Positions 8,021-18,371 of a DNA stretch of 64,000 bases are shown piece after piece. The notes beneath the pieces were generated by a model. That model searched no databases, was not told the DNA's origin, and saw only the letters and a program-made list of their open reading frames with translations. Every line of letters begins with the position of its first letter. Positions within the stretch are counted from its first letter, which is position 1. Position numbers and translations under genes: made by a program. The stretch is taken from positions 608,001 to 672,000 of the forward strand of contig CBDFJR010000002.1 of NCBI GenBank assembly GCA_965248535.1, in the 5' to 3' direction. The DNA is from Phormidesmis sp. (GTDB taxonomy: Bacteria > Cyanobacteriota > Cyanobacteriia > Leptolyngbyales > Leptolyngbyaceae).

Positions 8021-8695
8021 ATGACGGCTTCCCTCTCTGTCACAGCCAACGTAGCCCATGATTCTAAAGTTCTTACCTGGCAGCCTGCCACTTGGGACGA
8101 GTATTTGACCGTTAGAGACTCAGCGCCCGATCGGGTCAGGTTATGGTTTAATGACGGCTATCTTTTAGCAGACGATATGGGCGGCGAGGGCATTAATCAT
8201 TCTAAAGTTTGTGATCTTTTTGTGATGATCCTGGCCTTCTGGTTTGCGGCTAAACCAGAGCAAATTGCAGAATCATTAGGGCGCTGTTTACTAGAAAAAC
8301 CTCAGCAGAAAGCCTGCGTTCCTGATCTGGTTTTGTATGGGGGCGATCGCATACCGCAGTGGAGTGAAGGGGAACCTCGACGCATTGATTTGACTCAGTG
8401 GCGTGTGCCTGATTTGGTCGGCGAGATTGCAGACACCACCCTTGCTAGCGATTTGGATGAAAAGAAGCAACTCTACGCCGCGTTGGGCATTCCTGAATAT
8501 TGGGTGATTGACGTGTTGGGTAAGCGAGTGATTGCCTTTCGGTTGCAGGAAAACGGCAAATATCTTCAGTGTGTCGAGTCTGTAGCGTTAGCAGGATTGC
8601 CTATTACATTGTTAGAGCAGACGCTCGATCGGTTAATTCAAAACACTAACATCAGCGCTGCAAATTGGTTTGCTCAACAAATCAGTTCGCTTTAA
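8021..8695 (+). CDS. Uma2-family endonuclease
   Basis: PDLV...PDLVGEIA...KKQLYAALGIPEYWVID. Confidence 0.9.
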   Translation: MTASLSVTANVAHDSKVLTWQPATWDEYLTVRDSAPDRVRLWFNDGYLLADDMGGEGINHSKVCDLFVMILAFWFAAKPEQIAESLGRCLLEKPQQKACVPDLVLYGGDRIPQWSEGEPRRIDLTQWRVPDLVGEIADTTLASDLDEKKQLYAALGIPEYWVIDVLGKRVIAFRLQENGKYLQCVESVALAGLPITLLEQTLDRLIQNTNISAANWFAQQISSL

Positions 8696-8735
8696 ACTTA
8701 CTCATTCAAAACACAATTCAAACCCTATAATTTTC

Positions 8736-9152
8736 ATGGCTCAACATCAAAAAATTCTGACCATTCCCACTTCTGGCAAAGCGCTGCTGAGAATTAGCCA
8801 AAAGATTCAAGCGATCGTTACCGAATCCGGCATCAAAACGGGCATCTGTCACTTATTTTTGCGCCACACCTCCGCCAGTCTGATCATTCAGGAAAACGCT
8901 GACCCCGATGTGTTGAAAGACTTAGAGAACTTTTTCTCTAAACTCGTCCCCGAATGGGAAACCTATATTCACAGCGCTGAAGGTGATGACGATATGCCCG
9001 CCCACATTCGCACCGTGCTCACCCACACGTCAGAGCAGATCCCGATCGCTCAAGGCCGTTTGCTGCTCGGCACTTGGCAGGGCATCTATATTTGGGAGCA
9101 TCGACAGCGCAACCATCACCGCGAATTAGTGGTGCACATCACCGGAGAATAA
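8736..9152 (+). CDS. YjbQ/UPF0047 secondary thiamine-phosphate synthase family protein
   Basis: HTSASLIIQENADPDV, DDMPAHIR and LGTWQGIY. Start moved to ATG 8736. Confidence 0.9.
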   Translation: MAQHQKILTIPTSGKALLRISQKIQAIVTESGIKTGICHLFLRHTSASLIIQENADPDVLKDLENFFSKLVPEWETYIHSAEGDDDMPAHIRTVLTHTSEQIPIAQGRLLLGTWQGIYIWEHRQRNHHRELVVHITGE

Positions 9153-9159
9153 AGGAAGA

Positions 9160-10197
9160 GTGACCGAGCTACCGTTTTCGTCTAAAAAATCTAATCTGAT
9201 CTGGATTGTCTTAATCGCCAGTCTCAGCCTGGGTGGATGCAGCATTGAGAAAGCGCGGGCGCTGCAAGGGGCAGCCGTGCAGTTTAAAACAGAATCTTTG
9301 GCTGCGATCGACGCGATCGACCAAATGCGACAACGAGAATTAGAAGCACCGCCACGATCGCAGTCTGAGATTCGTCAGGGGTTTATCTCGCGGTTGCTCA
9401 ACTCTAAAGTTGACCTCAACAGCACCGTAATCGACCTAGCGATCGACCCGTTTCAGCCGCCCAAAGTTGCCGAGTGGGATGATTTCATCATCGATCTGCG
9501 GAGCCAATATGAAGGGTTTGCCTCGATTTTTGACAAGCTAAATAGCGGCACCTTAATCAGCCAAAGCGAAGCCCAGCAGTCGGCTGAATATGCCCGCAGG
9601 CTAACGGTGCAAATGGCGCTGCTGGCCGACGCGATTAACAAAAATCCGCCGATGCTGGGTCAATATCGGTCGCGCACGATCGTCAAACTCAAAAAACTTC
9701 GGCAAGATTATCAAACCCTGCTGACTCGCCTCAAAGCTAAAGAGTCAGGAAATTTCGATGGAACCGAAACCCTACAGCAGATGAACCAACGCAAATCAGA
9801 TCTTGAAAACCAAGCCGGAGAACTGATGAATGAATGGCAGCAGACCAAACAAGAAGAACAAAAGCTCCTCGAAACCACCGTTTCTCAATGCACTAAAGCC
9901 GCAACGATGGGCAAAGAATTGGTCGAAGTCGCCAATCACTACGACGAGCTAGATGTGAGTCAACTCAACACCCTGATTCCGAGAATTTTGACAACAGCGG
10001 CTGCTTTTACGGGTCGCGATTACAATACGGTCAGAGTTAAAGCGACTAATCTGGTGGCTCAAATTCAGTCTGACCCCCTGTGGAGTGACGTGACCAAAAC
10101 GCTGCTCGATCGGGTCAACACTGCCGCTGCTAGTCGCACTCAGCTACAGGTCAGATTGCCCCTGTCGCTTCCACCTGCTAATAGCCGCAATCGATAA
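9160..10197 (+). CDS. Putative lipoprotein, helical/coiled-coil, unknown function
   Basis: Basic N-terminus, hydrophobic stretch and lipobox-like LGGC. Body is Q/E/K-rich and helical. Confidence 0.7.
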   Translation: MTELPFSSKKSNLIWIVLIASLSLGGCSIEKARALQGAAVQFKTESLAAIDAIDQMRQRELEAPPRSQSEIRQGFISRLLNSKVDLNSTVIDLAIDPFQPPKVAEWDDFIIDLRSQYEGFASIFDKLNSGTLISQSEAQQSAEYARRLTVQMALLADAINKNPPMLGQYRSRTIVKLKKLRQDYQTLLTRLKAKESGNFDGTETLQQMNQRKSDLENQAGELMNEWQQTKQEEQKLLETTVSQCTKAATMGKELVEVANHYDELDVSQLNTLIPRILTTAAAFTGRDYNTVRVKATNLVAQIQSDPLWSDVTKTLLDRVNTAAASRTQLQVRLPLSLPPANSRNR

Positions 10198-10214
10198 CCT
10201 CACCTCACCGCTCT

Positions 10215-10514
10215 ATGTCTGACTCTAATCACCTGTTTTTGCAACAAGTCGCCAATTTGATGAATGACCTCAACGTGCGCTACATGGAGGCGGAATTTGA
10301 CGATCAGGTGCAGCTTAAAGATCAGCTAGATCAAGCGATGAATGATTTTTCTAAAGCAAAGTTAGCGATTCTCAAAAACACCATCACCTGCACCGCCGAC
10401 GATGTGAGACAGATGCAGCAACTGCGACAGCGACTCGCAAAAGCCCCTAATTTGCAGCAAATTTTGACGACCGTTATTAGTTTTGCAAACTTTGTTCGAT
10501 TGCGGTTTCTCTAA
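10215..10514 (+). CDS. Small helical hypothetical protein
   Basis: 99-aa ORF packed with 17- and 27-nt gaps inside the operon. Confidence 0.7.
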   Translation: MSDSNHLFLQQVANLMNDLNVRYMEAEFDDQVQLKDQLDQAMNDFSKAKLAILKNTITCTADDVRQMQQLRQRLAKAPNLQQILTTVISFANFVRLRFL

Positions 10515-10541
10515 GCATCACGGGCTATTGGCAAACGAACT

Positions 10542-11753
10542 ATGATCACGATCGAGCGCCTTGATCAACTTCTCACCGACTGGAAGCACAAACTCAATTT
10601 GGTCAGTCAAAACCTGATTGACCTTCAAGATTTGCCCACTTATCAACAGTTGGCAGGCGCGCCCGGAGTCGCAAAAACCCAGTTAATCGGAGTCACCGCC
10701 ACCCAGGTCACGCCAGCTTTAGAGGCGATTAACGAGCTATTTCAGCAGTTTGATTTGCTGACTCAGCCGATCGAGCAGGCGACTCAGCTTCGCAAGCAAA
10801 TGTCTCGGTTTTTGGGGTCAGAAAAAGCGCTGCAAGATATTGAAACGCTGCTGACGGGCGCTTCGATTCGGCTGCCTGTGGTACAAACGCCCCTCGCCAA
10901 CCGAGATTTGCTCACGGCCGCAGAAACCACAGCGACGATCGCGCCTGCTCAACTGCTGTCGGTGATGATGCAGCGATTTCAAGCCGCGAGAGATGTGGTG
11001 TTGGCCGTTGATGCGGCATGGCTGGCACTAGAGTCTATGCTGGTGGCGGCTGAGGCTGAGATCCGATCGCTTCAGCAATCGGCAAATTTAATCGATCAGG
11101 GTTCTCTAACAGAATTGGGGCAAGTGCATCAAGCGATCGCCACTTTGCACGATCGCATTCAGCAAGATCCGTTAGGGGTGAGAATAGAATTTGAGCAAAC
11201 CCTTCAGCCTTTGATCACACGAGCTAGAAATGCCGTTCAAAAAGGAGTTCAGCAACAGGCGCAAGTGCGAGAGAGACTGGCGATCGCTCAAACGCTATTG
11301 ACTCAATTAGAAACACTGCATCAAAAAAATCTAGCCGCCTTTGCGGAAAGTCAAGAAAAAGTTGTGGATCACTCTTTGCTACAAGCTCCGATCGCTCCAG
11401 AGCATCTTTCTGCCCTCGGTCAATGGCTGACTCGCCTCGCAGCCAAATCAGCCGAGGGGCTAGTCAGCCCCGTTTTGATTGGCCTAGACAATTGGATCAC
11501 CCAAGCCCAAGCGTCTATCGCCTCCGAAAAACGGGCATACTCAGCTAATCTCAAACCCCTCGAAACTCGCCGTGAGTTACGCGGCCGACTCGATGCCCTC
11601 AAAGCCAAAGCTCTCGCGAGAGGATTTGCTGAAGATGCCACCCTGGTTGAACTTGCCGCCCAAGCTAAACAGCTTCTCTACACCCGTCCTACGCCCCTAG
11701 ATGCCGCGATCGCATTAGTTGCCCACTATGAAAAACGTCTCAATAGTCATTAG
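10542..11753 (+). CDS. Coiled-coil protein resembling the uncharacterised gene beside actinobacterial pknG-like kinases
   Basis: 403-aa helical ORF with C-terminal RRELRGRLDALKAKALARGFAED. Resemblance is from recall, not searched. Confidence 0.7.
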   Translation: MITIERLDQLLTDWKHKLNLVSQNLIDLQDLPTYQQLAGAPGVAKTQLIGVTATQVTPALEAINELFQQFDLLTQPIEQATQLRKQMSRFLGSEKALQDIETLLTGASIRLPVVQTPLANRDLLTAAETTATIAPAQLLSVMMQRFQAARDVVLAVDAAWLALESMLVAAEAEIRSLQQSANLIDQGSLTELGQVHQAIATLHDRIQQDPLGVRIEFEQTLQPLITRARNAVQKGVQQQAQVRERLAIAQTLLTQLETLHQKNLAAFAESQEKVVDHSLLQAPIAPEHLSALGQWLTRLAAKSAEGLVSPVLIGLDNWITQAQASIASEKRAYSANLKPLETRRELRGRLDALKAKALARGFAEDATLVELAAQAKQLLYTRPTPLDAAIALVAHYEKRLNSH

Positions 11754-11777
11754 CAGTCTACTCACAGGAGTGGTTGA

Positions 11778-13946
11778 ATGAACGGCGCTCCCTGCACTCG
11801 AACCCCTTGCACAGGAACCCTTGACGATGGGTATTGCGACGTTTGCGGACTCGCGGCGATCGCGACTTCTAGCGCTCAGTTCAGCGCCAGAGTCACCGGA
11901 AGAAGCGTCCCTACGACCGGAACGGGGTCTTCGCCCTTGACCAATCGGGCTTCTAAAGGGTCGCGGCGCACTCAATCGACCTCAGCCCGCAGCACTCGCA
12001 GACAGTTAGGCGCAGGCTTAATTTCGGTGCCCGACTTGCCTTCAATCGAGCCAGAAAAGGCGATTTTGATTGAAGCAAAAGTGCCCGAAAACAAACGCTT
12101 TTGCGGCAACTGCAACAATGCTCTCAAGCGAGAAAAAGGCTTTTGCAGCAAATGCGGACAGAAATATTCCTTTGTCGCCACCCTAAAACCGGGCGATGTG
12201 GTGGCGGGTCAATATGAAGTCAAAGGCGCGATCGCTTACGGCGGTCTAGGCTGGATTTATCTCGGCATTGACAAAACTCTGTCGCGCTATGTGGTGCTCA
12301 AAGGGTTGCTCAACACCGAAGATGCCGCTAGCGCTGCCGTTGCGGTGGCCGAGCGTCAGTTTCTCGCGGCGGTCAAACACCCCAACATTGTGGGCATCTA
12401 TAACTTTGTCAACCACGGCACCGAAGGCTTCATCATCATGGAGTATGTCGGCGGGCAAACTCTCAAAGACCTTCGCAAACAGCGAGGCTTGCTGCCCGTC
12501 ACCGAAGCGATCGCCTATATTCACCGCATTCTCAGTGCCTTTGCTTATCTGCATCAGTTGGGGTTGGTCTATTGTGACTTTAAGCCTGACAACGTGATGC
12601 TAGAAGGCGATGATGTCAAGCTGATTGACTTGGGCGGAGTGCGCCGCATTGATGATCCCAATGGGGATATTTACGGCACAGTAGGCTACAGTGCCCCCGA
12701 AGCTGGAGACGGCCCCACAATTCCATCCGATCTGTTCACGGTTGCGCGGACGCTGGCGGTGTTAATCACCAACATCAAGGGCTTTAGCAAAGAGCATCTC
12801 TTCACGTTGCCCAATGCCAACGAAGACCCGATTTTTGCTCAACACGAGTCACTCTATCGATTTTTGATCAAGGCGACGGCGGATAATCCTGACGATCGCT
12901 TGCAGACGGCTGATGAGATGGCCGATCAGCTATTGGGGGTGCTGCGAGAAATGGTGGCGTTAGAGACTAACATCCCTCGCCCCACGTCTAGCAATTTATT
13001 TAGCGGCGATCGGTTAGCGCTGATTAACAGCAGCGACTCTGCACCAATTAAAGCCGATTATGATCAGTTACCCATCCCGTTGTTAAATTCCGCCGATCCC
13101 GGATTTAACGCTGTGATGAATGCTAGCGCGATCGCAGACAGCACCCATCGCATTGAGAATTTATCCCAAGCGGTTAAACAGTTTCCTAAGTCAACTGAAG
13201 CGGTTTTGCGATTGGCCAATAGCCTGATCGGAGTCAACTCTGCTCAAGCTGAAACCTATTTAGCCGAGGTTGAAGCCAAAGACCCGTGGGATTGGCGAGT
13301 CTTGTGGTATCGCGGACGATCGCTGATGGCCCAAGGCAAATTTAAAGACGCTCAGGCAGCCTTTGATCAGGTTTATTTTGACTTGCCCGGAGAGTTAGCG
13401 CCAAAACTGGCGTTAGCCCTATCAGCCGAGCAAGCCAAAAATTATCCTTTAGCGATCAAGATGTATGATTTGGTGTCTCGCACCGATCCCGGTTATGTCT
13501 CGGCGGCCTTTGGGCTAGCGCGCTGTCTGTGCGCCACGGGCGATCGTCCAGGAGCCGTTGCCGCTTTAGAACGGGTGCCGCCATCGTCGAGTTTGTTCAC
13601 CCGATCGCGGGTTGAGGTGGCCCGCACGTTGATCAATCGCGATCGCAGCGCGCCCGGTGCTTCTGAGCTAAAGGCGGCTTCGACGGCGATCGAGGCATTG
13701 ACCTTAGACGGCGTTGAGCGGCATCGGCTGACCCAACAAGTGCTCGAAACCGCCCTGCATTTAGTGACCACCAAAGCCGTTTCGCCGACTGCCTCGATCG
13801 CGATTCTCGGTCAACCGCTAGAGGAGTCCAAAATCAGAAAAGGACTCGAAAAAGCCTTACGTGCTCTCGCCCATCTCGCAACAGGGGACGAAAAAATCAA
13901 GCTGGTCGATGAAGCCAATCAGGTCAGACCGAGGAGTTTATTTTAA
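11778..13946 (+). CDS. PknG-type Ser/Thr kinase (Cys-rich N-terminus, rubredoxin-like CxxC pairs, kinase, TPR)
   Basis: VPENKRFCGNC...FCSKCG, GQYEVKGAIAYGGLGWIYL, VVLKGLL, non-RD loop YCDFKPDN, IDLG, YGTVGYSAPE. C-terminal TPRs include PGELAPKLALA and VSAAFGLAR. Confidence 0.9.
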   Translation: MNGAPCTRTPCTGTLDDGYCDVCGLAAIATSSAQFSARVTGRSVPTTGTGSSPLTNRASKGSRRTQSTSARSTRRQLGAGLISVPDLPSIEPEKAILIEAKVPENKRFCGNCNNALKREKGFCSKCGQKYSFVATLKPGDVVAGQYEVKGAIAYGGLGWIYLGIDKTLSRYVVLKGLLNTEDAASAAVAVAERQFLAAVKHPNIVGIYNFVNHGTEGFIIMEYVGGQTLKDLRKQRGLLPVTEAIAYIHRILSAFAYLHQLGLVYCDFKPDNVMLEGDDVKLIDLGGVRRIDDPNGDIYGTVGYSAPEAGDGPTIPSDLFTVARTLAVLITNIKGFSKEHLFTLPNANEDPIFAQHESLYRFLIKATADNPDDRLQTADEMADQLLGVLREMVALETNIPRPTSSNLFSGDRLALINSSDSAPIKADYDQLPIPLLNSADPGFNAVMNASAIADSTHRIENLSQAVKQFPKSTEAVLRLANSLIGVNSAQAETYLAEVEAKDPWDWRVLWYRGRSLMAQGKFKDAQAAFDQVYFDLPGELAPKLALALSAEQAKNYPLAIKMYDLVSRTDPGYVSAAFGLARCLCATGDRPGAVAALERVPPSSSLFTRSRVEVARTLINRDRSAPGASELKAASTAIEALTLDGVERHRLTQQVLETALHLVTTKAVSPTASIAILGQPLEESKIRKGLEKALRALAHLATGDEKIKLVDEANQVRPRSLF

Positions 13947-13951
13947 GCGTC

Positions 13952-14917
13952 ATGCCAACTATTCAATGTCCAACCTGTGATGCCGCCGTTTTGCAAGACG
14001 ACCAGTTTTGTGAAGAATGCGGCACGGCTTTAATCGAGAAATCTGGGATAGGCTGTGAGAAATGCGGTGCGCCGCCGGACACGATCGACGCAGAAGGCTT
14101 TTGCAATCAGTGTGGGTTTCGGCGAGAAGCCAAGACGGGCGATCGTGTGGAAATCATTCTCAACCCCAATTTGGCTGGAGTCAGCGATCGGGGCCTCAGA
14201 CATCATCAAAACGAAGATTTTCTGGCATTGCAAACCCTTGGGACTGCTGAAATTCTGGTCGTTTGCGATGGGGTATCCAGTTCTCATCACCCCGAACTTG
14301 CGTCTCAAGCGGCTTCTAAAAGTGCAAGTTTAGCGCTGGCATCAGCCCTGCAAACCGGAGCCGCGCCAGAGGTTGCCCTTCAGTCGGCGGTCAAGACTGC
14401 CCTCTCAGACGTTTGTCGCTTGGTGGAAGGTCAGTCAGATGCCGAGCCGCCGTCTACCACTTTGGTCGCGGCAGTAGTGCAAGCGGGCATCGCCACGATC
14501 GGGTGGCTGGGCGACAGTCGGGCTTACTGGATTTCGGAAACTGGATCACGACAGTTAACTCACGATCACTCCTGGGTTAATGACGCGATCGCGTCGGGCA
14601 AAATGACCGCAGTCGAGGCCAATCACGCGCCGCAGGCCCACGCAATCACGCGCTGGCTAGGAGCCGATGCCCAAGATGCAGGTGATCCTACGATCGTCCA
14701 GTTTCCGCTTCCTGGCGCTGGTTATCTGCTGCTCTGTAGCGACGGGCTGTGGAACTATGCACCCGCAGCCCAACAGATTCAGGGATTAGTGCAAAAAAGT
14801 TTGAAACTAGATGCGGTGACGATCGCCCGATCGTTGGTTGAGTTTGCCCGATCGCAGGGGGGACGCGATAATATTACCGTTGCGCTATTCATTCATCCTT
14901 CGTTAACGTCTGATTAA
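13952..14917 (+). CDS. PP2C/PPM Ser/Thr phosphatase with N-terminal double zinc ribbon
   Basis: Four CxxC pairs, then DRGLRHHQNED, VCDGVS, GDSRAY, CSDGLWN and GGRDNITV. Confidence 0.92.
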   Translation: MPTIQCPTCDAAVLQDDQFCEECGTALIEKSGIGCEKCGAPPDTIDAEGFCNQCGFRREAKTGDRVEIILNPNLAGVSDRGLRHHQNEDFLALQTLGTAEILVVCDGVSSSHHPELASQAASKSASLALASALQTGAAPEVALQSAVKTALSDVCRLVEGQSDAEPPSTTLVAAVVQAGIATIGWLGDSRAYWISETGSRQLTHDHSWVNDAIASGKMTAVEANHAPQAHAITRWLGADAQDAGDPTIVQFPLPGAGYLLLCSDGLWNYAPAAQQIQGLVQKSLKLDAVTIARSLVEFARSQGGRDNITVALFIHPSLTSD

Positions 14918-14963
14918 TCCAACCGTTATCTTTTTTGTCATATTCTCCATTCCTTACAAATCT

Positions 14964-16241
14964 ATGGCTACTCAATTCACGGCTGAAGTCTTCCAAAATC
15001 AATTTTTGCCCCAAGGGTCGAGAGAAGTCCACGCGATCATGACTGTGAACGCTGGCGAGAACACAGAAATCTCAAGTAGCGTATCGGGCGATCGACTGTT
15101 TGGCATTATTTGCGACACGTCAGGATCAATGGGCGGACAAAAAATCCGATCGGCAAAAGATGCCCTGATCAAAGTCGTCAATCTGCTTCCCGAAGATGCC
15201 CATTTTTTCATTGTCACGGGGGCAAGCAGTGCGCGATTAGTCGCTCCATTAACCCAAGCCACGCCTGAAAATAAACAGCGCGCGATCGTCAATATTCGCT
15301 CGATCGAAGCCAGTGGCGGAACGCTGATTTCAACCTGGCTGAATGCGGCGCTTAAACAGTTTCAGCAAATGCCGACCGCCATTCGTCAAGCCTTATTGCT
15401 GACCGACGGGCAAAATGATGAATCGGATGAAAAAGCCTTCGATCGGGTGCTTAAAACCTGTGAGGGCGTGTTTCAATGTGACTGTCGAGGAGTCGGAACC
15501 GACTGGCGCGTTGCTCAACTCAAACGCATTTCTAGCAAGCTTCTGGGCACCACTGACATCATTGCCGATGCGCTGCTGATTGAAGCTGATTTTCAGGCGA
15601 TCTTGCAGCAGGCGATGGGCAAAAACATTAGCGATGTGGCCATGCGGCTGTGGACACCTCAAGGAGCCAAGATTCTGTTTTGCAAGCAGGTCAGCCCTGA
15701 TATTGTCGATCTCACCGATCGGGCAAAATCTCTAAAACCCCAAGTGGTTGACTATCCCACAGGAGCGTGGGGCAAACGCGAATCACGAGATTATCACTTC
15801 TGCATTGAGGTCAATCCGGGGAATGTGGGCGACGAAATGCTGGCGGGTCGAGCGAGTTTGATCTGCACGATCGCGGGCACCGAGACTAAAATCGCCGAAG
15901 CCCGCATCCTGGCAGTTTGGACGGATGACGATGCAAAATCCACTAAGATCGATCGCCGCGTCGCTCACTACACCGGGCAAGCCGAACTCGCCCAAACCAT
16001 TCAAGAAGGGCTAGATGCCCGCAATCAAGGCAACGTTGAAGTCGCCACCGCCAAACTCGGACGAGCCGTTAAAATCGCTCACGAATCGGGCAACGAAGCC
16101 ACCGCTAAACTTCTCAGAACGGTGGTAGAAATCGAGGACGCGCCCACCGGAACCGTGCGATTGAAAAAAGCGATCGCCAAAGAAGACGAAATGGCCTTGG
16201 AAACCCGATCAACCAAAACCACCCGCATTCCCAAGTCATAA
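14964..16241 (+). CDS. vWA domain protein
   Basis: MIDAS DTSGSM, GGT and LLTDG. Confidence 0.9.
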   Translation: MATQFTAEVFQNQFLPQGSREVHAIMTVNAGENTEISSSVSGDRLFGIICDTSGSMGGQKIRSAKDALIKVVNLLPEDAHFFIVTGASSARLVAPLTQATPENKQRAIVNIRSIEASGGTLISTWLNAALKQFQQMPTAIRQALLLTDGQNDESDEKAFDRVLKTCEGVFQCDCRGVGTDWRVAQLKRISSKLLGTTDIIADALLIEADFQAILQQAMGKNISDVAMRLWTPQGAKILFCKQVSPDIVDLTDRAKSLKPQVVDYPTGAWGKRESRDYHFCIEVNPGNVGDEMLAGRASLICTIAGTETKIAEARILAVWTDDDAKSTKIDRRVAHYTGQAELAQTIQEGLDARNQGNVEVATAKLGRAVKIAHESGNEATAKLLRTVVEIEDAPTGTVRLKKAIAKEDEMALETRSTKTTRIPKS

Positions 16242-16249
16242 CCGCTACT

Positions 16250-16948
16250 ATGTCTACCTATCTCTGCCCCAAAGGTCACCAATCTAGCGAGTCAGACTAT
16301 TGCTCAGAATGCGGTGTGAAAATTGTCAGCAGTTCTGCCCCGATCGTGCCTTCCATTCCTCAGCACGCTGCTGTCTTATGTCCCGATTGCAGCGCTCCTC
16401 ACGAACTACACGGCGGCAATTTTTGCGAAATTTGCGGCTATAACTTCTTGACCAAAGCTCACGGAGAATTGCCGATCGTCCCGCCTGCTGTGCCCGTTGT
16501 TGCACCCGTTGCTGTGCCCGAAGTCATAGCACCCCTTGAAACGGTCACGACGAAACAGCCAGAATCAGCGCCTTGTGGCTGGCAAGCAGTGGTCACGATC
16601 GACCCATCTCTACGTCACCCCGATAGCCCAGGGCCGCCAGCAGACCAGCCTCCGATCACGATTCGTCTCGATCAGCCAACTCATTTAATCGGTCGCACCA
16701 GCCAAGCCAGAGCCGTTTATCCCGATATTGCGGTGGATTTGGATGACGCTGTTTCTCATCGCCACGCGATTGTCGATCGCTCGTCAGACAACACGCTGAT
16801 CTTGCGCGATATCGGCTCCTCTAACGGCACTCAATTGAATGGAGTTGAACTCCAACCCATGACAGATGTGACCCTTAAAGACGGGGACGAGATCACGATC
16901 GGGCATTGGACAAAAATCATCATTCAAGCCATTACTCAATCCGCATAA
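16250..16948 (+). CDS. Zinc-ribbon plus FHA domain protein
   Basis: CPKGH...CSECG and CPDC...CEICG, Pro/Val linker, then FHA motifs IGR, VSHRHA, DIGSSNGT. Confidence 0.9.
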   Translation: MSTYLCPKGHQSSESDYCSECGVKIVSSSAPIVPSIPQHAAVLCPDCSAPHELHGGNFCEICGYNFLTKAHGELPIVPPAVPVVAPVAVPEVIAPLETVTTKQPESAPCGWQAVVTIDPSLRHPDSPGPPADQPPITIRLDQPTHLIGRTSQARAVYPDIAVDLDDAVSHRHAIVDRSSDNTLILRDIGSSNGTQLNGVELQPMTDVTLKDGDEITIGHWTKIIIQAITQSA

Positions 16949-16961
16949 TTTGTGATCTACC

Positions 16962-18371
16962 ATGACTGCTATCAAAAAAACCGCAATCAGATCCACTCAA
17001 AAACTAACGACTCCTCAAAAAATTAGAATTGGTGTAGGAATCACTTGGGGACTAGGATTACTATCACTAATTACTACGATTTCAGGAGTGCAACAGCAGC
17101 GTGACGCGATCAAAACGGTGGGCAAAGACACAACGCCTAGCATTATCACAGCCCAACGCTTAAAAGATGGGCTATCGGGAATGGATGCCTTCGCAGCTAG
17201 TGAATTTTTAGTGCCGTCTAGCAACACCCAAAATTCATTTCTAGACCCCATTGGGAAAGATCAAAATGGAGCCATTATTCAAGGCTATAACGAGCGCTAT
17301 AAATCGGTTGCCGAACGATTAGTTATGGCAGCCAATAACCTTACCTATGAGGAAGAGCGAGAACCGATCCAAACCATGCAGCTTGGGATTGGGGAGTATG
17401 TGGCTAAGATTCAGCAGGCGCGAGACGCACACATTCGCCGCGACCAAACTGGAATGTTGACCGCTTATTTGGCGGCGGCTGAAGTTATGGACAATACTCT
17501 TTTGCCTGCTGCCGATCGCTTAGACCAGGCAAACGTTAAAGTTCTCGATCACACCTATGATGAGCAAAAATTTGCCTTTGCCCGATCGCTGTTTTTGATC
17601 ACAATCATCACCCTAGGGCTAACCGGATTCTTAGTCCTGTTTCAGCTATTTCTCAGCCGCCGCACTCGGCGCACGCTGAATCCTTTTTTGCTGTCAGCTA
17701 CGGCGATCGCGCTGGTGTTTTTAGCCCACACGATCGGGTCATTGCTGTCTGCTTCCCATCATCTCAAAGTCGCTAAAGTAGATGCCTTTGACTCAATGCA
17801 CTCTCTGCGTCAGGCTCGTGCGCTTGCTTATGGGGCCAATGCTGACGAGAGCCGCTATTTGCTAGATGCTAAAAATGCCGCCACTCACGAGCGAGCCTTC
17901 TTTAACAAGATGAACCAAATTGCCGCCCCTCCCAACGGTCAGACGCTTGAGCAAATCACGCTTCTCGCTCAACAGCAAACCAAACTCGTCGGGTTAACTG
18001 GGTTTTTGGGAGAAGAGTTAAGCAACATCACATTTCCGGGCGAACGAACGGCCGTGATCGATACCCTGTCTGCGCTCTCTAACTATCTAAAGATCGATCA
18101 ACAAATTCGCCAACTTCAGCAAAGCGGAAAATATCGAGAGGCGATCGCGCTCTGCACAGGCAACAATCCCGGTGAGTCTGATTGGGCCTTTGAGCAATTT
18201 AAAACAGCCAATTCAAAAACCTATGATGTGAACAGTAAAGCCTTTGACGCTGCCATCGGTCAGGGCAATCAAGATCTGGAGGGATTTGAAACCAAAACCA
18301 CGATCGCCCTCGCCGCGATCGCCCTACTCACTCTGCTAGGGACAATGCCTCGCCTTAAAGAATATTCTTAA
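16962..18371 (+). CDS. GlnX-like membrane protein (about 4 TM segments, two extracytoplasmic helical bundles)
   Basis: TM-bundle-TM-TM-bundle-TM layout, RRTRRTLNPFLL loop, DAFDSMHSLRQARALAYGANADESRYLL, ending PRLKEY. Resembles actinobacterial GlnX-type proteins from recall. Confidence 0.75.
   Translation: MTAIKKTAIRSTQKLTTPQKIRIGVGITWGLGLLSLITTISGVQQQRDAIKTVGKDTTPSIITAQRLKDGLSGMDAFAASEFLVPSSNTQNSFLDPIGKDQNGAIIQGYNERYKSVAERLVMAANNLTYEEEREPIQTMQLGIGEYVAKIQQARDAHIRRDQTGMLTAYLAAAEVMDNTLLPAADRLDQANVKVLDHTYDEQKFAFARSLFLITIITLGLTGFLVLFQLFLSRRTRRTLNPFLLSATAIALVFLAHTIGSLLSASHHLKVAKVDAFDSMHSLRQARALAYGANADESRYLLDAKNAATHERAFFNKMNQIAAPPNGQTLEQITLLAQQQTKLVGLTGFLGEELSNITFPGERTAVIDTLSALSNYLKIDQQIRQLQQSGKYREAIALCTGNNPGESDWAFEQFKTANSKTYDVNSKAFDAAIGQGNQDLEGFETKTTIALAAIALLTLLGTMPRLKEYS

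Follow-up and report, generated by a model that had tools for sequence, protein, structure and literature searches.

What does a PknG-type protein kinase do in a cyanobacterium whose genome yields no 2-oxoglutarate dehydrogenase (ODH), and which of the genes packed around it belong with it? The question is raised by a locus of Phormidesmis sp. in a stretch of 64,000 nucleotides (positions 608,001–672,000 of the forward strand of contig CBDFJR010000002.1, assembly GCA_965248535.1), which we refer to as the window. Eight open reading frames (ORFs) on the + strand, designated g1 to g8, lie within positions 9160–18371 with intergenic gaps of 17, 27, 24, 5, 46, 8, and 13 nt, and their coordinates match the eight co-oriented genes with gaps of 5–46 nt given by a first-pass annotation of the letters alone. 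The domain calls of that annotation all hold in Pfam, NCBIfam, and the translations, and the motifs it quoted (GGLGWIYL, YCDFKPDN of the non-RD type, and LIDLGG in the kinase; the lipobox LSLGGC in g1) are seen there. It took all eight genes as one unit, but the conserved unit comprises the six genes g3 to g8 (10542–18371), and the g1-g2 pair recurs elsewhere without them. The six genes encode a helical protein (g3), a PknG-family kinase (g4), a PP2C phosphatase (g5), a vWA protein (g6), an FHA protein (g7), and a GlnX-family membrane protein (g8). We describe this cassette as PknG-GlnX signaling joined to a predicted switch of the ArnA/ArnB type, a combination that is found in many bacterial phyla.

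Distribution and gene order of the six-gene cassette

A scan for relatives of the g4 kinase, with one genome per species, gave 551 confirmed relatives, from which 80 loci were kept. These loci were compared by tblastn with the window proteins, the comparison was repeated with added queries from a Kribbella locus, and the phylum of each locus was taken as named in its sequence record. Counts of loci refer to the 40 that have at least 6.5 kb upstream and at least 5.5 kb downstream of the kinase; the 40 shorter loci were left uncounted. Homologs of all six proteins (g3, kinase, PP2C, vWA, FHA, and GlnX) are encoded on one strand in 33 of the 40 loci, and the arrangement of g3 to g8 can therefore not be due to chance. 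PP2C, vWA, and FHA homologs are each present in 39 loci and g3 homologs in 35. Among the incomplete loci, L015 and L059 have no detected GlnX; L050, L061, L069, and L072 have no detected g3; and L021, from Chamaesiphon, has the kinase alone. The 33 complete loci span Cyanobacteriota, Acidobacteriota, Armatimonadota, Pseudomonadota, Chloroflexota, Actinomycetota, and one unclassified record, to which the shorter loci add Verrucomicrobiota and Planctomycetota. The six-gene cassette occurs in at least seven phyla. The gene set is thus no peculiarity of cyanobacteria, and the Actinomycetota versions add glnH.

The usual order, seen in most loci, is g3-kinase-PP2C-vWA-FHA-GlnX. A permuted order, vWA-FHA-GlnX-g3-kinase-PP2C, is found in Burkholderiales and in one locus each of Chloroflexia and Pseudanabaena, and Kribbella and other Actinomycetota have the order TelA–AAA+ ATPase–GlnX–GlnH-type SBP_bac_3–g3–kinase–PP2C–vWA–FHA, in which the AAA+ ATPase is present in 13 of the 17 counted Actinomycetota loci. 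GlnH-type genes occur only in the Actinomycetota and Dormibacterota loci, and the window cluster encodes no SBP_bac_3 protein. Within Cyanobacteria the kinase was found in 7 of 301 sampled genomes, this one included, and in none of the 3 from the same family. Chamaesiphon also has PknG-type kinases (L021, L022, L028, and L037; 57–63% identity) with no other cassette genes within the available flanks, which for L021 measure 10 kb and 8.6 kb on the two sides.

Components of the cassette

The protein g4 (11778–13946) is assigned as a true member of the PknG family of Ser/Thr kinases. It has an N-terminal zinc ribbon, a linker rich in Ser/Thr, and three further domains: one like rubredoxin, a kinase core of the non-RD type, and a TPR domain of the PknG type. 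Both PknG-specific domains score above their Pfam cut-offs (PknG_rubred PF16919, 59.2 bits against 28.5; PknG_TPR PF16918, 233 bits against 27), and the Pkinase domain scores 114 bits. The match to PknG of M. tuberculosis (2pzi; 456 bits, E = 2.5e-135) runs from residue 76 to residue 722 across the rubredoxin, kinase, and TPR domains, and that to C. glutamicum PknG (7mxb) has an E-value of 8.6e-93. By contrast, the best match to a kinase outside the family, PknB, reaches 88 bits, which separates g4 from ordinary Pkn2-type kinases, as the first-pass annotation had proposed. In 23 orthologs of g4, the catalytic residues K175, E192, D267, N272, D284, and A306-P307-E308 are invariant, with C266 preceding the catalytic Asp, and so are the cysteines of the rubredoxin domain (C109, C112, C123, and C126) and of the additional N-terminal ribbon (C6, C11, C20, and C23). 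It is the only protein with a PknG_TPR match above the cut-off in its own genome, and each of the two Kribbella genomes searched likewise has a single PknG_TPR kinase, located in this cluster.

A PknG_TPR match at E ≤ 1e-15 was found in 8 of 151 sampled Actinomycetota genomes, and nine loci were fetched from seven of these eight. Five of the nine contexts have glnX-glnH-pknG only (L110, L111, L112, L114, and L118), L113 has a lone kinase, and L115 to L117 are extended. Kinases of the glnX-glnH-pknG loci are 36–40% identical to the window kinase over approximately 90% of its length. A quick IQ-TREE tree was built from 56 kinases picked for spread from 82 extracted, the 26 omitted rows including the truncated L115; the support values are SH-aLRT only, and midpoint rooting was used for drawing. 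The six kinases without PP2C, vWA, and FHA neighbors (the five classical loci and L113) form one group with a support of 100, which is sister to the extended L116 and L117 (96). All 33 non-actinobacterial rows group together (99); 13 of the 14 cyanobacterial rows group together (97) and are joined with Acidobacteriota (99). L034 lies on a long branch. One change of neighborhood type would suffice for the reduced three-gene clade, and loss of genes would be the simpler reading, which the unrooted tree leaves unproven.

The protein g8 (16962–18371) is predicted to be a membrane sensor of the GlnX family that has four transmembrane (TM) helices, a pair of periplasmic four-helix bundles, and short motifs conserved on the cytoplasmic side. 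It scores 304.2 bits against the NCBIfam subfamily model NF058618 (GlnX family signal transduction membrane protein; cut-off 250). Against the narrower equivalog NF041460, which describes the PknG-activating GlnX, it reaches 74 bits, below the cut-off of 780, and in this respect it differs from the sensor of the mycobacterial and corynebacterial system. Hydropathy analysis revealed four hydrophobic segments, in line with the four TM helices and two periplasmic four-helix bundles reported for GlnX (PMC9769921), and the predicted model (pLDDT 88.7, pTM 0.82) has long, TM-continuous helices. Structural comparison of its two domains with known sensor domains gave Z-scores of 14.6–17.2: domain 1 matches LytS-N (Z 17.2, root-mean-square deviation [rmsd] 1.4, 120 residues aligned) and McpS (Z 15.8, rmsd 1.7, 121 residues), and domain 2 matches the ligand-binding domain MCP2201-LBD (Z 15.2, rmsd 2.5, 134 residues). 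MCP2201 is the comparator reported for GlnX by Sundermeyer et al. (PMC9769921). A Foldseek search with the g8 model returned no match at E ≤ 0.001.

The cytoplasmic face of g8 is tiny and conserved. It consists of the TM2-TM3 loop near RRTRRxxNP and a C-terminus that ends in PR[LI]xEY plus one residue (PRLKEYS in g8 itself). PR[LI]xEY is common to the 24 aligned g8 homologs and to the GlnX proteins of eight actinobacterial loci, of which five are classical three-gene loci. The family score, the fold, and this common motif bear out the earlier description of g8 as a GlnX-like membrane protein. Because the GlnX of the classical loci ends in the same motif, we propose the C-terminal peptide as a candidate ligand of the kinase TPR domain, a domain for which a role as the GlnX docking site has been proposed (PMC8546545, PMC6069109).

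The protein g6 (14964–16241) contains the Pfam domains VWA_3 and VWA_3_C (the latter with E = 1.6e-20) and matches the entry 4fx5 of the PDB over its full length (residues 4–423; E = 2.2e-103, or 6.9e-157 with a profile). This entry is Caci_2163 of Catenulispora acidiphila, and it was reported to have the same vWA, β-sandwich, and helical-bundle fold as the ArnB paralog (Hoffmann et al., PMC6509490), an equivalence taken from that published comparison. It is also described as a structural ortholog, with no gene context given in that account (PMC12852372). We assign g6 as an ArnB-like tripartite vWA protein. In 27 g6 sequences from several phyla, the residues of the MIDAS (metal-ion-dependent adhesion site; D51, S53, G54, S55, T120, and D148) are invariant, and so are M410, L412, T417, T419, and R421 of the C-terminal tail. 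This tail resembles the phosphopeptides of ArnB, whose C-terminal helices are phosphorylated by ArnC and ArnD and whose peptides end ...ELIET*T*RR (PMC6509490; asterisks as in the published notation). In most rows of the g6 alignment, position +3 from T419 is occupied by I, V, or L. A threonine followed by one of these residues at +3 fits common FHA ligands. The g6 family profile also matches ArnB itself (8s05_A, an entry whose identity is confirmed in PMC12852372) with an E-value of 1.1e-13, in the vWA domain only.

The protein g7 (16250–16948) is an ArnA-like candidate reader, in which a pair of zinc ribbons is connected to an FHA domain by a Pro-rich linker; Pfam detects the FHA domain and a weak DZR match. 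In 26 g7 sequences the ribbons C6/H10/C18/C21 and C44/C47/C59/C62 are invariant and the Pro-rich linker is variable, and the phosphothreonine-pocket residues of the FHA domain (G148, R149, S169, R171, N192, and G193) are invariant among the orthologs. A g7 profile matches ArnA (8s05_C, E = 1.1e-9, positions 40–218; 5a8i, E = 3.6e-9, positions 44–220) colinearly from the second zinc ribbon to the FHA domain, whereas all other listed profile matches start at profile position 126 or later, in the FHA region only. ArnA was not among the 24 matches at E ≤ 0.01 of a search with the single g7 sequence, which gave E-values of 2.3e-5 to 9.3e-5 for GarA and 3.4e-4 for OdhI; with the profile these two are at approximately 1e-9. 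The OdhI equivalog NF041660 gives 33.5 bits against a cut-off of 200, and g7 has no conserved GarA-like N-terminal motif of the ETTS type, a stretch ETVTT being present in the window and L001 only among the 26 sequences. Taken together, g7 and g6 resemble the ArnA/ArnB switch rather than GarA, with which the FHA protein had been compared. In the archaeal pair, the zinc finger of ArnA binds the β-sandwich and C-terminal domain of ArnB first, and phosphorylation then recruits the FHA domain (PMC12852372).

The protein g5 (13952–14917) is a PP2C phosphatase with an N-terminal double zinc ribbon and is the likely eraser of the cassette. It matches the Pfam families PP2C_2, PP2C, and DZR, and its NCBIfam Stp1/IreP score of 151.6 bits is below the cut-off of 230. 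Inspection of the translations revealed that the ribbons of the kinase N-terminus, the PP2C N-terminus, and g7 have a common [YF]-C-x-x-C-G knuckle. Because the three share one knuckle type, a common mode of docking on g6 is suggested, and the zinc ribbons probably dock the kinase, the phosphatase, and the reader on this protein.

The protein g3 (10542–11753; 403 residues) is an all-helical cytoplasmic protein of an unnamed family, with no family match in Pfam, NCBIfam, or PADLOC. Profile searches gave 2261, 1726, and 950 representative clusters at E ≤ 1e-3, 1e-10, and 1e-30, respectively; the Atlas clusters are unnamed or carry the automatic name "Smc", which is a misnomer, and there is a weak lead to EzrA (0.83). 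The AlphaFold2 model (pLDDT 90.5) is all-helical, and Foldseek found nothing in the PDB at E ≤ 0.001. The best VIA-align match, to EzrA (Z 12.1 with 161 residues aligned and rmsd 4.5; Z 10.9 with 318 residues and rmsd 7.3), falls in the generic helical range, and BLASTP of g3 against the TelA of L042 was not significant (E = 0.25). The sole lead to the function of g3 is its fixed position: wherever it was detected, it lies immediately before the kinase. The best 150 of the 2261 relatives include rare longer forms with unrelated N-terminal parts and yield no consistent lead; the N-terminal part of one of them (P0083) has no match. Two N-terminal extensions, with a weak Pfam match to peptidase M48 in P0007 (1e-11) and to an adenylate/guanylate cyclase catalytic domain in P0090 (1.3e-5), may be either real fusions or merged gene calls.

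Genes beside the cassette and the question of its output

The two genes upstream of g3 adjoin the conserved core and lie outside it. The gene g1 (9160–10197) encodes a predicted lipoprotein of 345 residues and g2 (10215–10514) a protein of 99 residues that travels with g1, and neither has a family match in Pfam, NCBIfam, or PADLOC. Homologs of g1 with 24–31% identity are present in 5 of 300 other sampled cyanobacterial genomes, and there is one further marginal match. In the three such regions that were fetched, a g2-like small ORF follows the g1 homolog, the other neighbors are unrelated, and no cassette gene is nearby. The small ORF of 136 residues in L090 is weakly similar to g2 (E = 3e-4; 23% over 98 residues) and is conserved in L091 with 52% identity. 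Beside the cassette, g1 and g2 were found in 1 of the 40 loci (L001, the closest relative, with a kinase identity of 89%) and are not present in 10 of the 11 cyanobacterial loci among them. Because g1-g2-like pairs recur with unrelated neighbors and no cassette nearby, g1-g2 is taken as a separate two-gene unit and g3–g8 as the cassette. The two-gene unit, a helical lipoprotein of approximately 320–345 residues followed by a small helical protein of 99–141 residues, occurs in few cyanobacteria with varying neighbors and is without a Pfam family (window 9160–10514; L090:8005–9484; L091:7663–9065; L092:7014–8411). In L091 the pair is directly followed by an SBP_bac_3 solute-binding protein (L091:9221–10027), a single case that may be a coincidence.

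The genes flanking the cluster in the window are unrelated to it: Uma2 and YjbQ genes upstream on the same strand, a DUF1257 gene on the opposite strand, and a GDPD gene downstream (Pfam and NCBIfam). The gene for the putative endonuclease of the Uma2 family overlaps the start of the YjbQ (UPF0047) gene by 26 nt (8021–9152), directly upstream of g1; in L001, YjbQ is present at the equivalent place and Uma2 was not detected there. Since the tight spacing runs on into these unrelated genes, spacing alone cannot delimit the unit. HIP1 (GCGATCGC) occurs at 70 sites in the window against 2.15 expected, and the site list has 13 sites between 11133 and 18315 within the cassette (g3–g8) and none in g1-g2. 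This host-like density favors the long residence of the genes that the first-pass annotation read from it, the sporadic occurrence of the cassette in Cyanobacteria speaks against it, and overall long residence is weakly supported.

In the classical pathway PknG controls ODH through GarA/OdhI, and this target was not found. At a genome completeness of 99.76%, there is no match to the E1 component of ODH (TIGR00239), for which a control search was positive in 7 known genomes, and no OdhI equivalog, the best match to the OdhI model scoring 47.8 bits against a cut-off of 200. The output must therefore differ from that of the classical pathway, as had been claimed. The flanks of twelve cassettes have no gene in common, and because the flanking genes differ across these loci, no effector is genetically linked to the cassette. 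TelA heads the cassette in L042 (3853–5052), L043, L070 (3002–6542), and L078 (3307–4542), which are Actinomycetota and Burkholderiales loci with or without the AAA+ ATPase, and PspA/IM30 followed by an AAA ATPase heads L030 (6342–8775), a metagenome-assembled genome locus of Bryobacterales. The recurrence of TelA/PspA hints that the physiological context could be the state of the membrane or envelope.

Proposed signaling route, alternatives, and relation to known systems

The genes present, the families to which they belong, their conservation, and the lack of the classical target are observed; from these we infer the signal and each binding and phosphorylation step of the following route. 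With moderate confidence, we lean toward the reading that g3–g8 form a self-contained Ser/Thr phospho-signaling cassette that passes a signal from the sensor through the kinase to an ArnA/ArnB-like switch. The GlnX-type g8 would sense a periplasmic or envelope signal via its tandem four-helix bundles and relay it to the PknG-type g4, whose TPR domain probably docks on the cytoplasmic motifs of GlnX, including the C-terminal PR[LI]xEY. The kinase would phosphorylate the conserved C-terminal threonines of the ArnB-like g6, and the FHA domain of g7 would bind the phosphorylated tail, so that a loose zinc-ribbon complex would become a tight one, as with ArnA/ArnB of Sulfolobus. The PP2C g5 would reset the switch, and g3 may serve the kinase as a helical partner or scaffold. 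The output, which would be neither ODH nor encoded near the cassette, is probably altered binding by the vWA/FHA complex.

Several points weigh against this route. The sequence link to ArnB covers the vWA domain alone, the C-terminal link being made through Pfam VWA_3_C and the published structural comparison, and the authors of the Arn study call bacterial vWA homologs mostly not involved in multi-phosphorylation (PMC12852372). The kinases of ArnA/ArnB are not PknG-like. The fold match of g3 appears no better than expected of any long helical protein, and co-transcription of the cassette genes is a presumption. Finally, the substrate of canonical PknG is a small FHA protein, and g7 rather than g6 could therefore be the direct target of the kinase.

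In one alternative reading the cassette works in the classical manner: g7 would be the direct substrate and would, like GarA/OdhI, bind and regulate some metabolic enzyme besides ODH (such as one of nitrogen or glutamate metabolism), and the vWA protein would be a mere accessory. The kinase and GlnX are true members of their families by our assignments, the FHA domain of g7 weakly matches GarA and OdhI (2.3e-5 to 3.4e-4 with the single sequence, approximately 1e-9 with the profile), the OdhI model gives 33.5 bits, and the Ser/Thr-rich segment at the kinase N-terminus is partly conserved among the orthologs. The corresponding N-terminal segment of PknG recruits GarA. We nevertheless consider this reading unlikely: g7 is without a conserved N-terminal phospho-acceptor motif, its two invariant zinc ribbons are not in GarA, its OdhI score falls far short of the equivalog cut-off of 200, and a mere accessory role of the vWA protein is disfavored because no cassette member is better conserved (its mean column identity is 57%, compared with 35% for the FHA protein). 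A further alternative is a conflict or defense system of the vWA-PP2C-kinase type (TerY-P- or Esr-like), which would sense attack by a phage, epibiont, or competitor at the envelope and trigger a protective response. Such a role would account for the sporadic occurrence (7 of 301 sampled cyanobacterial genomes and none of the 3 of the same family) and for a kinase tree that is incongruent with the phyla, in which Cyanobacteria group with Acidobacteriota (SH-aLRT 99) and a Pseudomonadota row with Chloroflexota. The vWA-PP2C-kinase triad is a theme of TerY-P (PMC11090510), Esr of Actinomycetales uses a vWA protein, a kinase, a phosphatase, and an FHA/zinc-finger output for threat sensing (PMC13622651), and TelA (L042, L043, L070, and L078) or PspA/IM30 (L030) heads some cassettes. 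However, PADLOC lends no support to the conflict role that the first-pass annotation had entertained: it has 0 families for g6, a weak PDC-M21C match only for g5, and generic kinase matches (PD-T4-6, mad6, C3a189, and MkoA) among the 25 listed of 34 families. No nuclease, toxin, or other effector domain is in the cassette or consistently adjoins it; the MoxR ATPase and β-propeller sensor of Esr are missing; the kinase ends in a TPR domain, where TerY-P kinases are described with a zinc ribbon or OB fold (PMC11090510); and the Actinomycetota cassettes carry a solute-binding protein of the amino-acid type. In our view, a defense role has a small chance of being correct.

The remaining alternative concerns the extent of the unit. 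All eight genes could form one operon in which the lipoprotein g1, with g2, takes the place of GlnH beside the GlnX-type sensor and acts as a periplasmic co-sensor specific to the lineage. Gaps of only 17 and 27 nt join g1, g2, and g3, the order is the same in the closest relative L001, the actinobacterial versions place the lipoprotein-type binding protein GlnH beside GlnX, and four-helix-bundle sensors like g8 are described as using periplasmic partners (LytS-XylFII, TorS-TorT, and QseE with the lipoprotein QseG). Against this, the pair is missing from 10 of the 11 cyanobacterial loci and recurs in other cyanobacteria beside unrelated genes without the cassette, and the tight spacing equally reaches the YjbQ and Uma2 genes. 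The 0 HIP1 sites in g1-g2, where approximately 1–2 are expected, are not significant. We regard the eight-gene operon as quite improbable and retain the six-gene cassette with its sensor, kinase, and ArnA/ArnB-like switch.

Comparison of the cassette with the GlnH-GlnX-PknG-GarA/OdhI system of Mycobacterium and Corynebacterium (PMC6069109, PMC9769921, PMC8546545) revealed common features, namely a PknG-type kinase with rubredoxin domain, non-RD core, and TPR; a GlnX-family sensor with four TM helices, tandem four-helix bundles, and the same cytoplasmic C-terminal motif; and an FHA protein as phospho-reader. The differences are as follows: (i) the window cluster has no GlnH, and the genome has neither ODH E1 nor an OdhI equivalog; (ii) zinc ribbons are present in the FHA protein, which is without a motif of the ETTS type; and (iii) a dedicated PP2C, a vWA protein, and the helical g3 are added in the cassette, whose kinase bears an additional N-terminal zinc ribbon. 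With ArnA/ArnB of Sulfolobus acidocaldarius, on which the kinases ArnC/ArnD and the phosphatase PP2A act (PMC6509490, PMC12852372), the cassette shares a zinc-ribbon and FHA reader colinear with ArnA, a 4FX5/ArnB-type vWA protein with intact MIDAS and Thr-rich C-terminal helical region, and a Hanks-type kinase and Ser/Thr phosphatase acting on the pair, a function that for the cassette is predicted from its genes. Unlike the archaeal system, the cassette is bacterial, has a PknG-type kinase with its own membrane sensor, uses PP2C instead of PP2A, has two zinc ribbons in its reader, and encodes all parts and g3 together; there is no archaellum, and the similarity to ArnB is in the vWA domain only. 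Both parent systems have been linked to nutrient status.

Three other systems have a similar set of parts. The TerY-P triad, a stand-alone anti-phage system and CoCoNuT accessory (PMC11090510), also combines vWA, PP2C, and Hanks kinase with accessory zinc ribbons; the cassette differs in a vWA protein without a PADLOC match, a PP2C with the weak PDC-M21C match, a kinase that ends in TPR, and the additional FHA reader, GlnX sensor, and g3. Esr (PMC13622651) is an operon with vWA, Ser/Thr kinase, phosphatase, and an FHA output that often has zinc fingers, but it has a MoxR ATPase, a surface β-propeller sensor, and a transglutaminase. The Deinococcus operon DRA0331-0334 (bioRxiv 10.64898/2026.01.23.701218) encodes vWA, kinase, FHA, and PP2C, but there the kinase itself spans the membrane and an FHA domain is part of the PP2C. 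The descriptions of Esr and the Deinococcus operon used here mention no PknG-type kinase or GlnX sensor. In a literature search, from which subscription journals were mostly excluded, no paper came to light in which a PknG kinase is encoded along with PP2C, vWA, zinc-ribbon-FHA, and g3. The PknG papers describe a three-gene operon; operon figures of the PknG and Arn papers (for example, Fig. 2B of PMC6069109 and the supplementary figures of PMC12852372) could show extra genes that the text does not mention. Nor did the search reveal a characterized cyanobacterial example, as the first-pass annotation had presumed; Lisa et al. (2021) mention a Calothrix PknG homolog with a rubredoxin domain in the text consulted, as a mention only.

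PknG is among the most studied bacterial Ser/Thr kinases and has been described as an actinobacterial three-gene system with one output. A tentative extension of our results, plausible yet still doubtful, is that PknG-GlnX did not evolve as a dedicated ODH regulator. Its general and possibly original partner would be an ArnA/ArnB-type switch with PP2C and g3; the mycobacterial and corynebacterial operon would be a reduced and re-targeted derivative; ArnA/ArnB signaling would be pan-prokaryotic; and in cyanobacteria and other soil and biofilm phyla the switch would couple an envelope or periplasmic cue to the output. The window alone is a smaller gain, namely a further member of the cassette, the first known to us in this cyanobacterial lineage, and an extra lipoprotein pair beside it. 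If the six-gene cassette is the wider form of PknG, it would provide the kinase with a candidate new substrate (the vWA protein), a dedicated phosphatase, and a partner family of approximately 950 representative clusters. The archaeal ArnA/ArnB switch would in turn acquire counterparts in bacteria for which the upstream sensor is defined, and organisms that lack ODH would offer a clean background in which to find other targets of PknG kinases.

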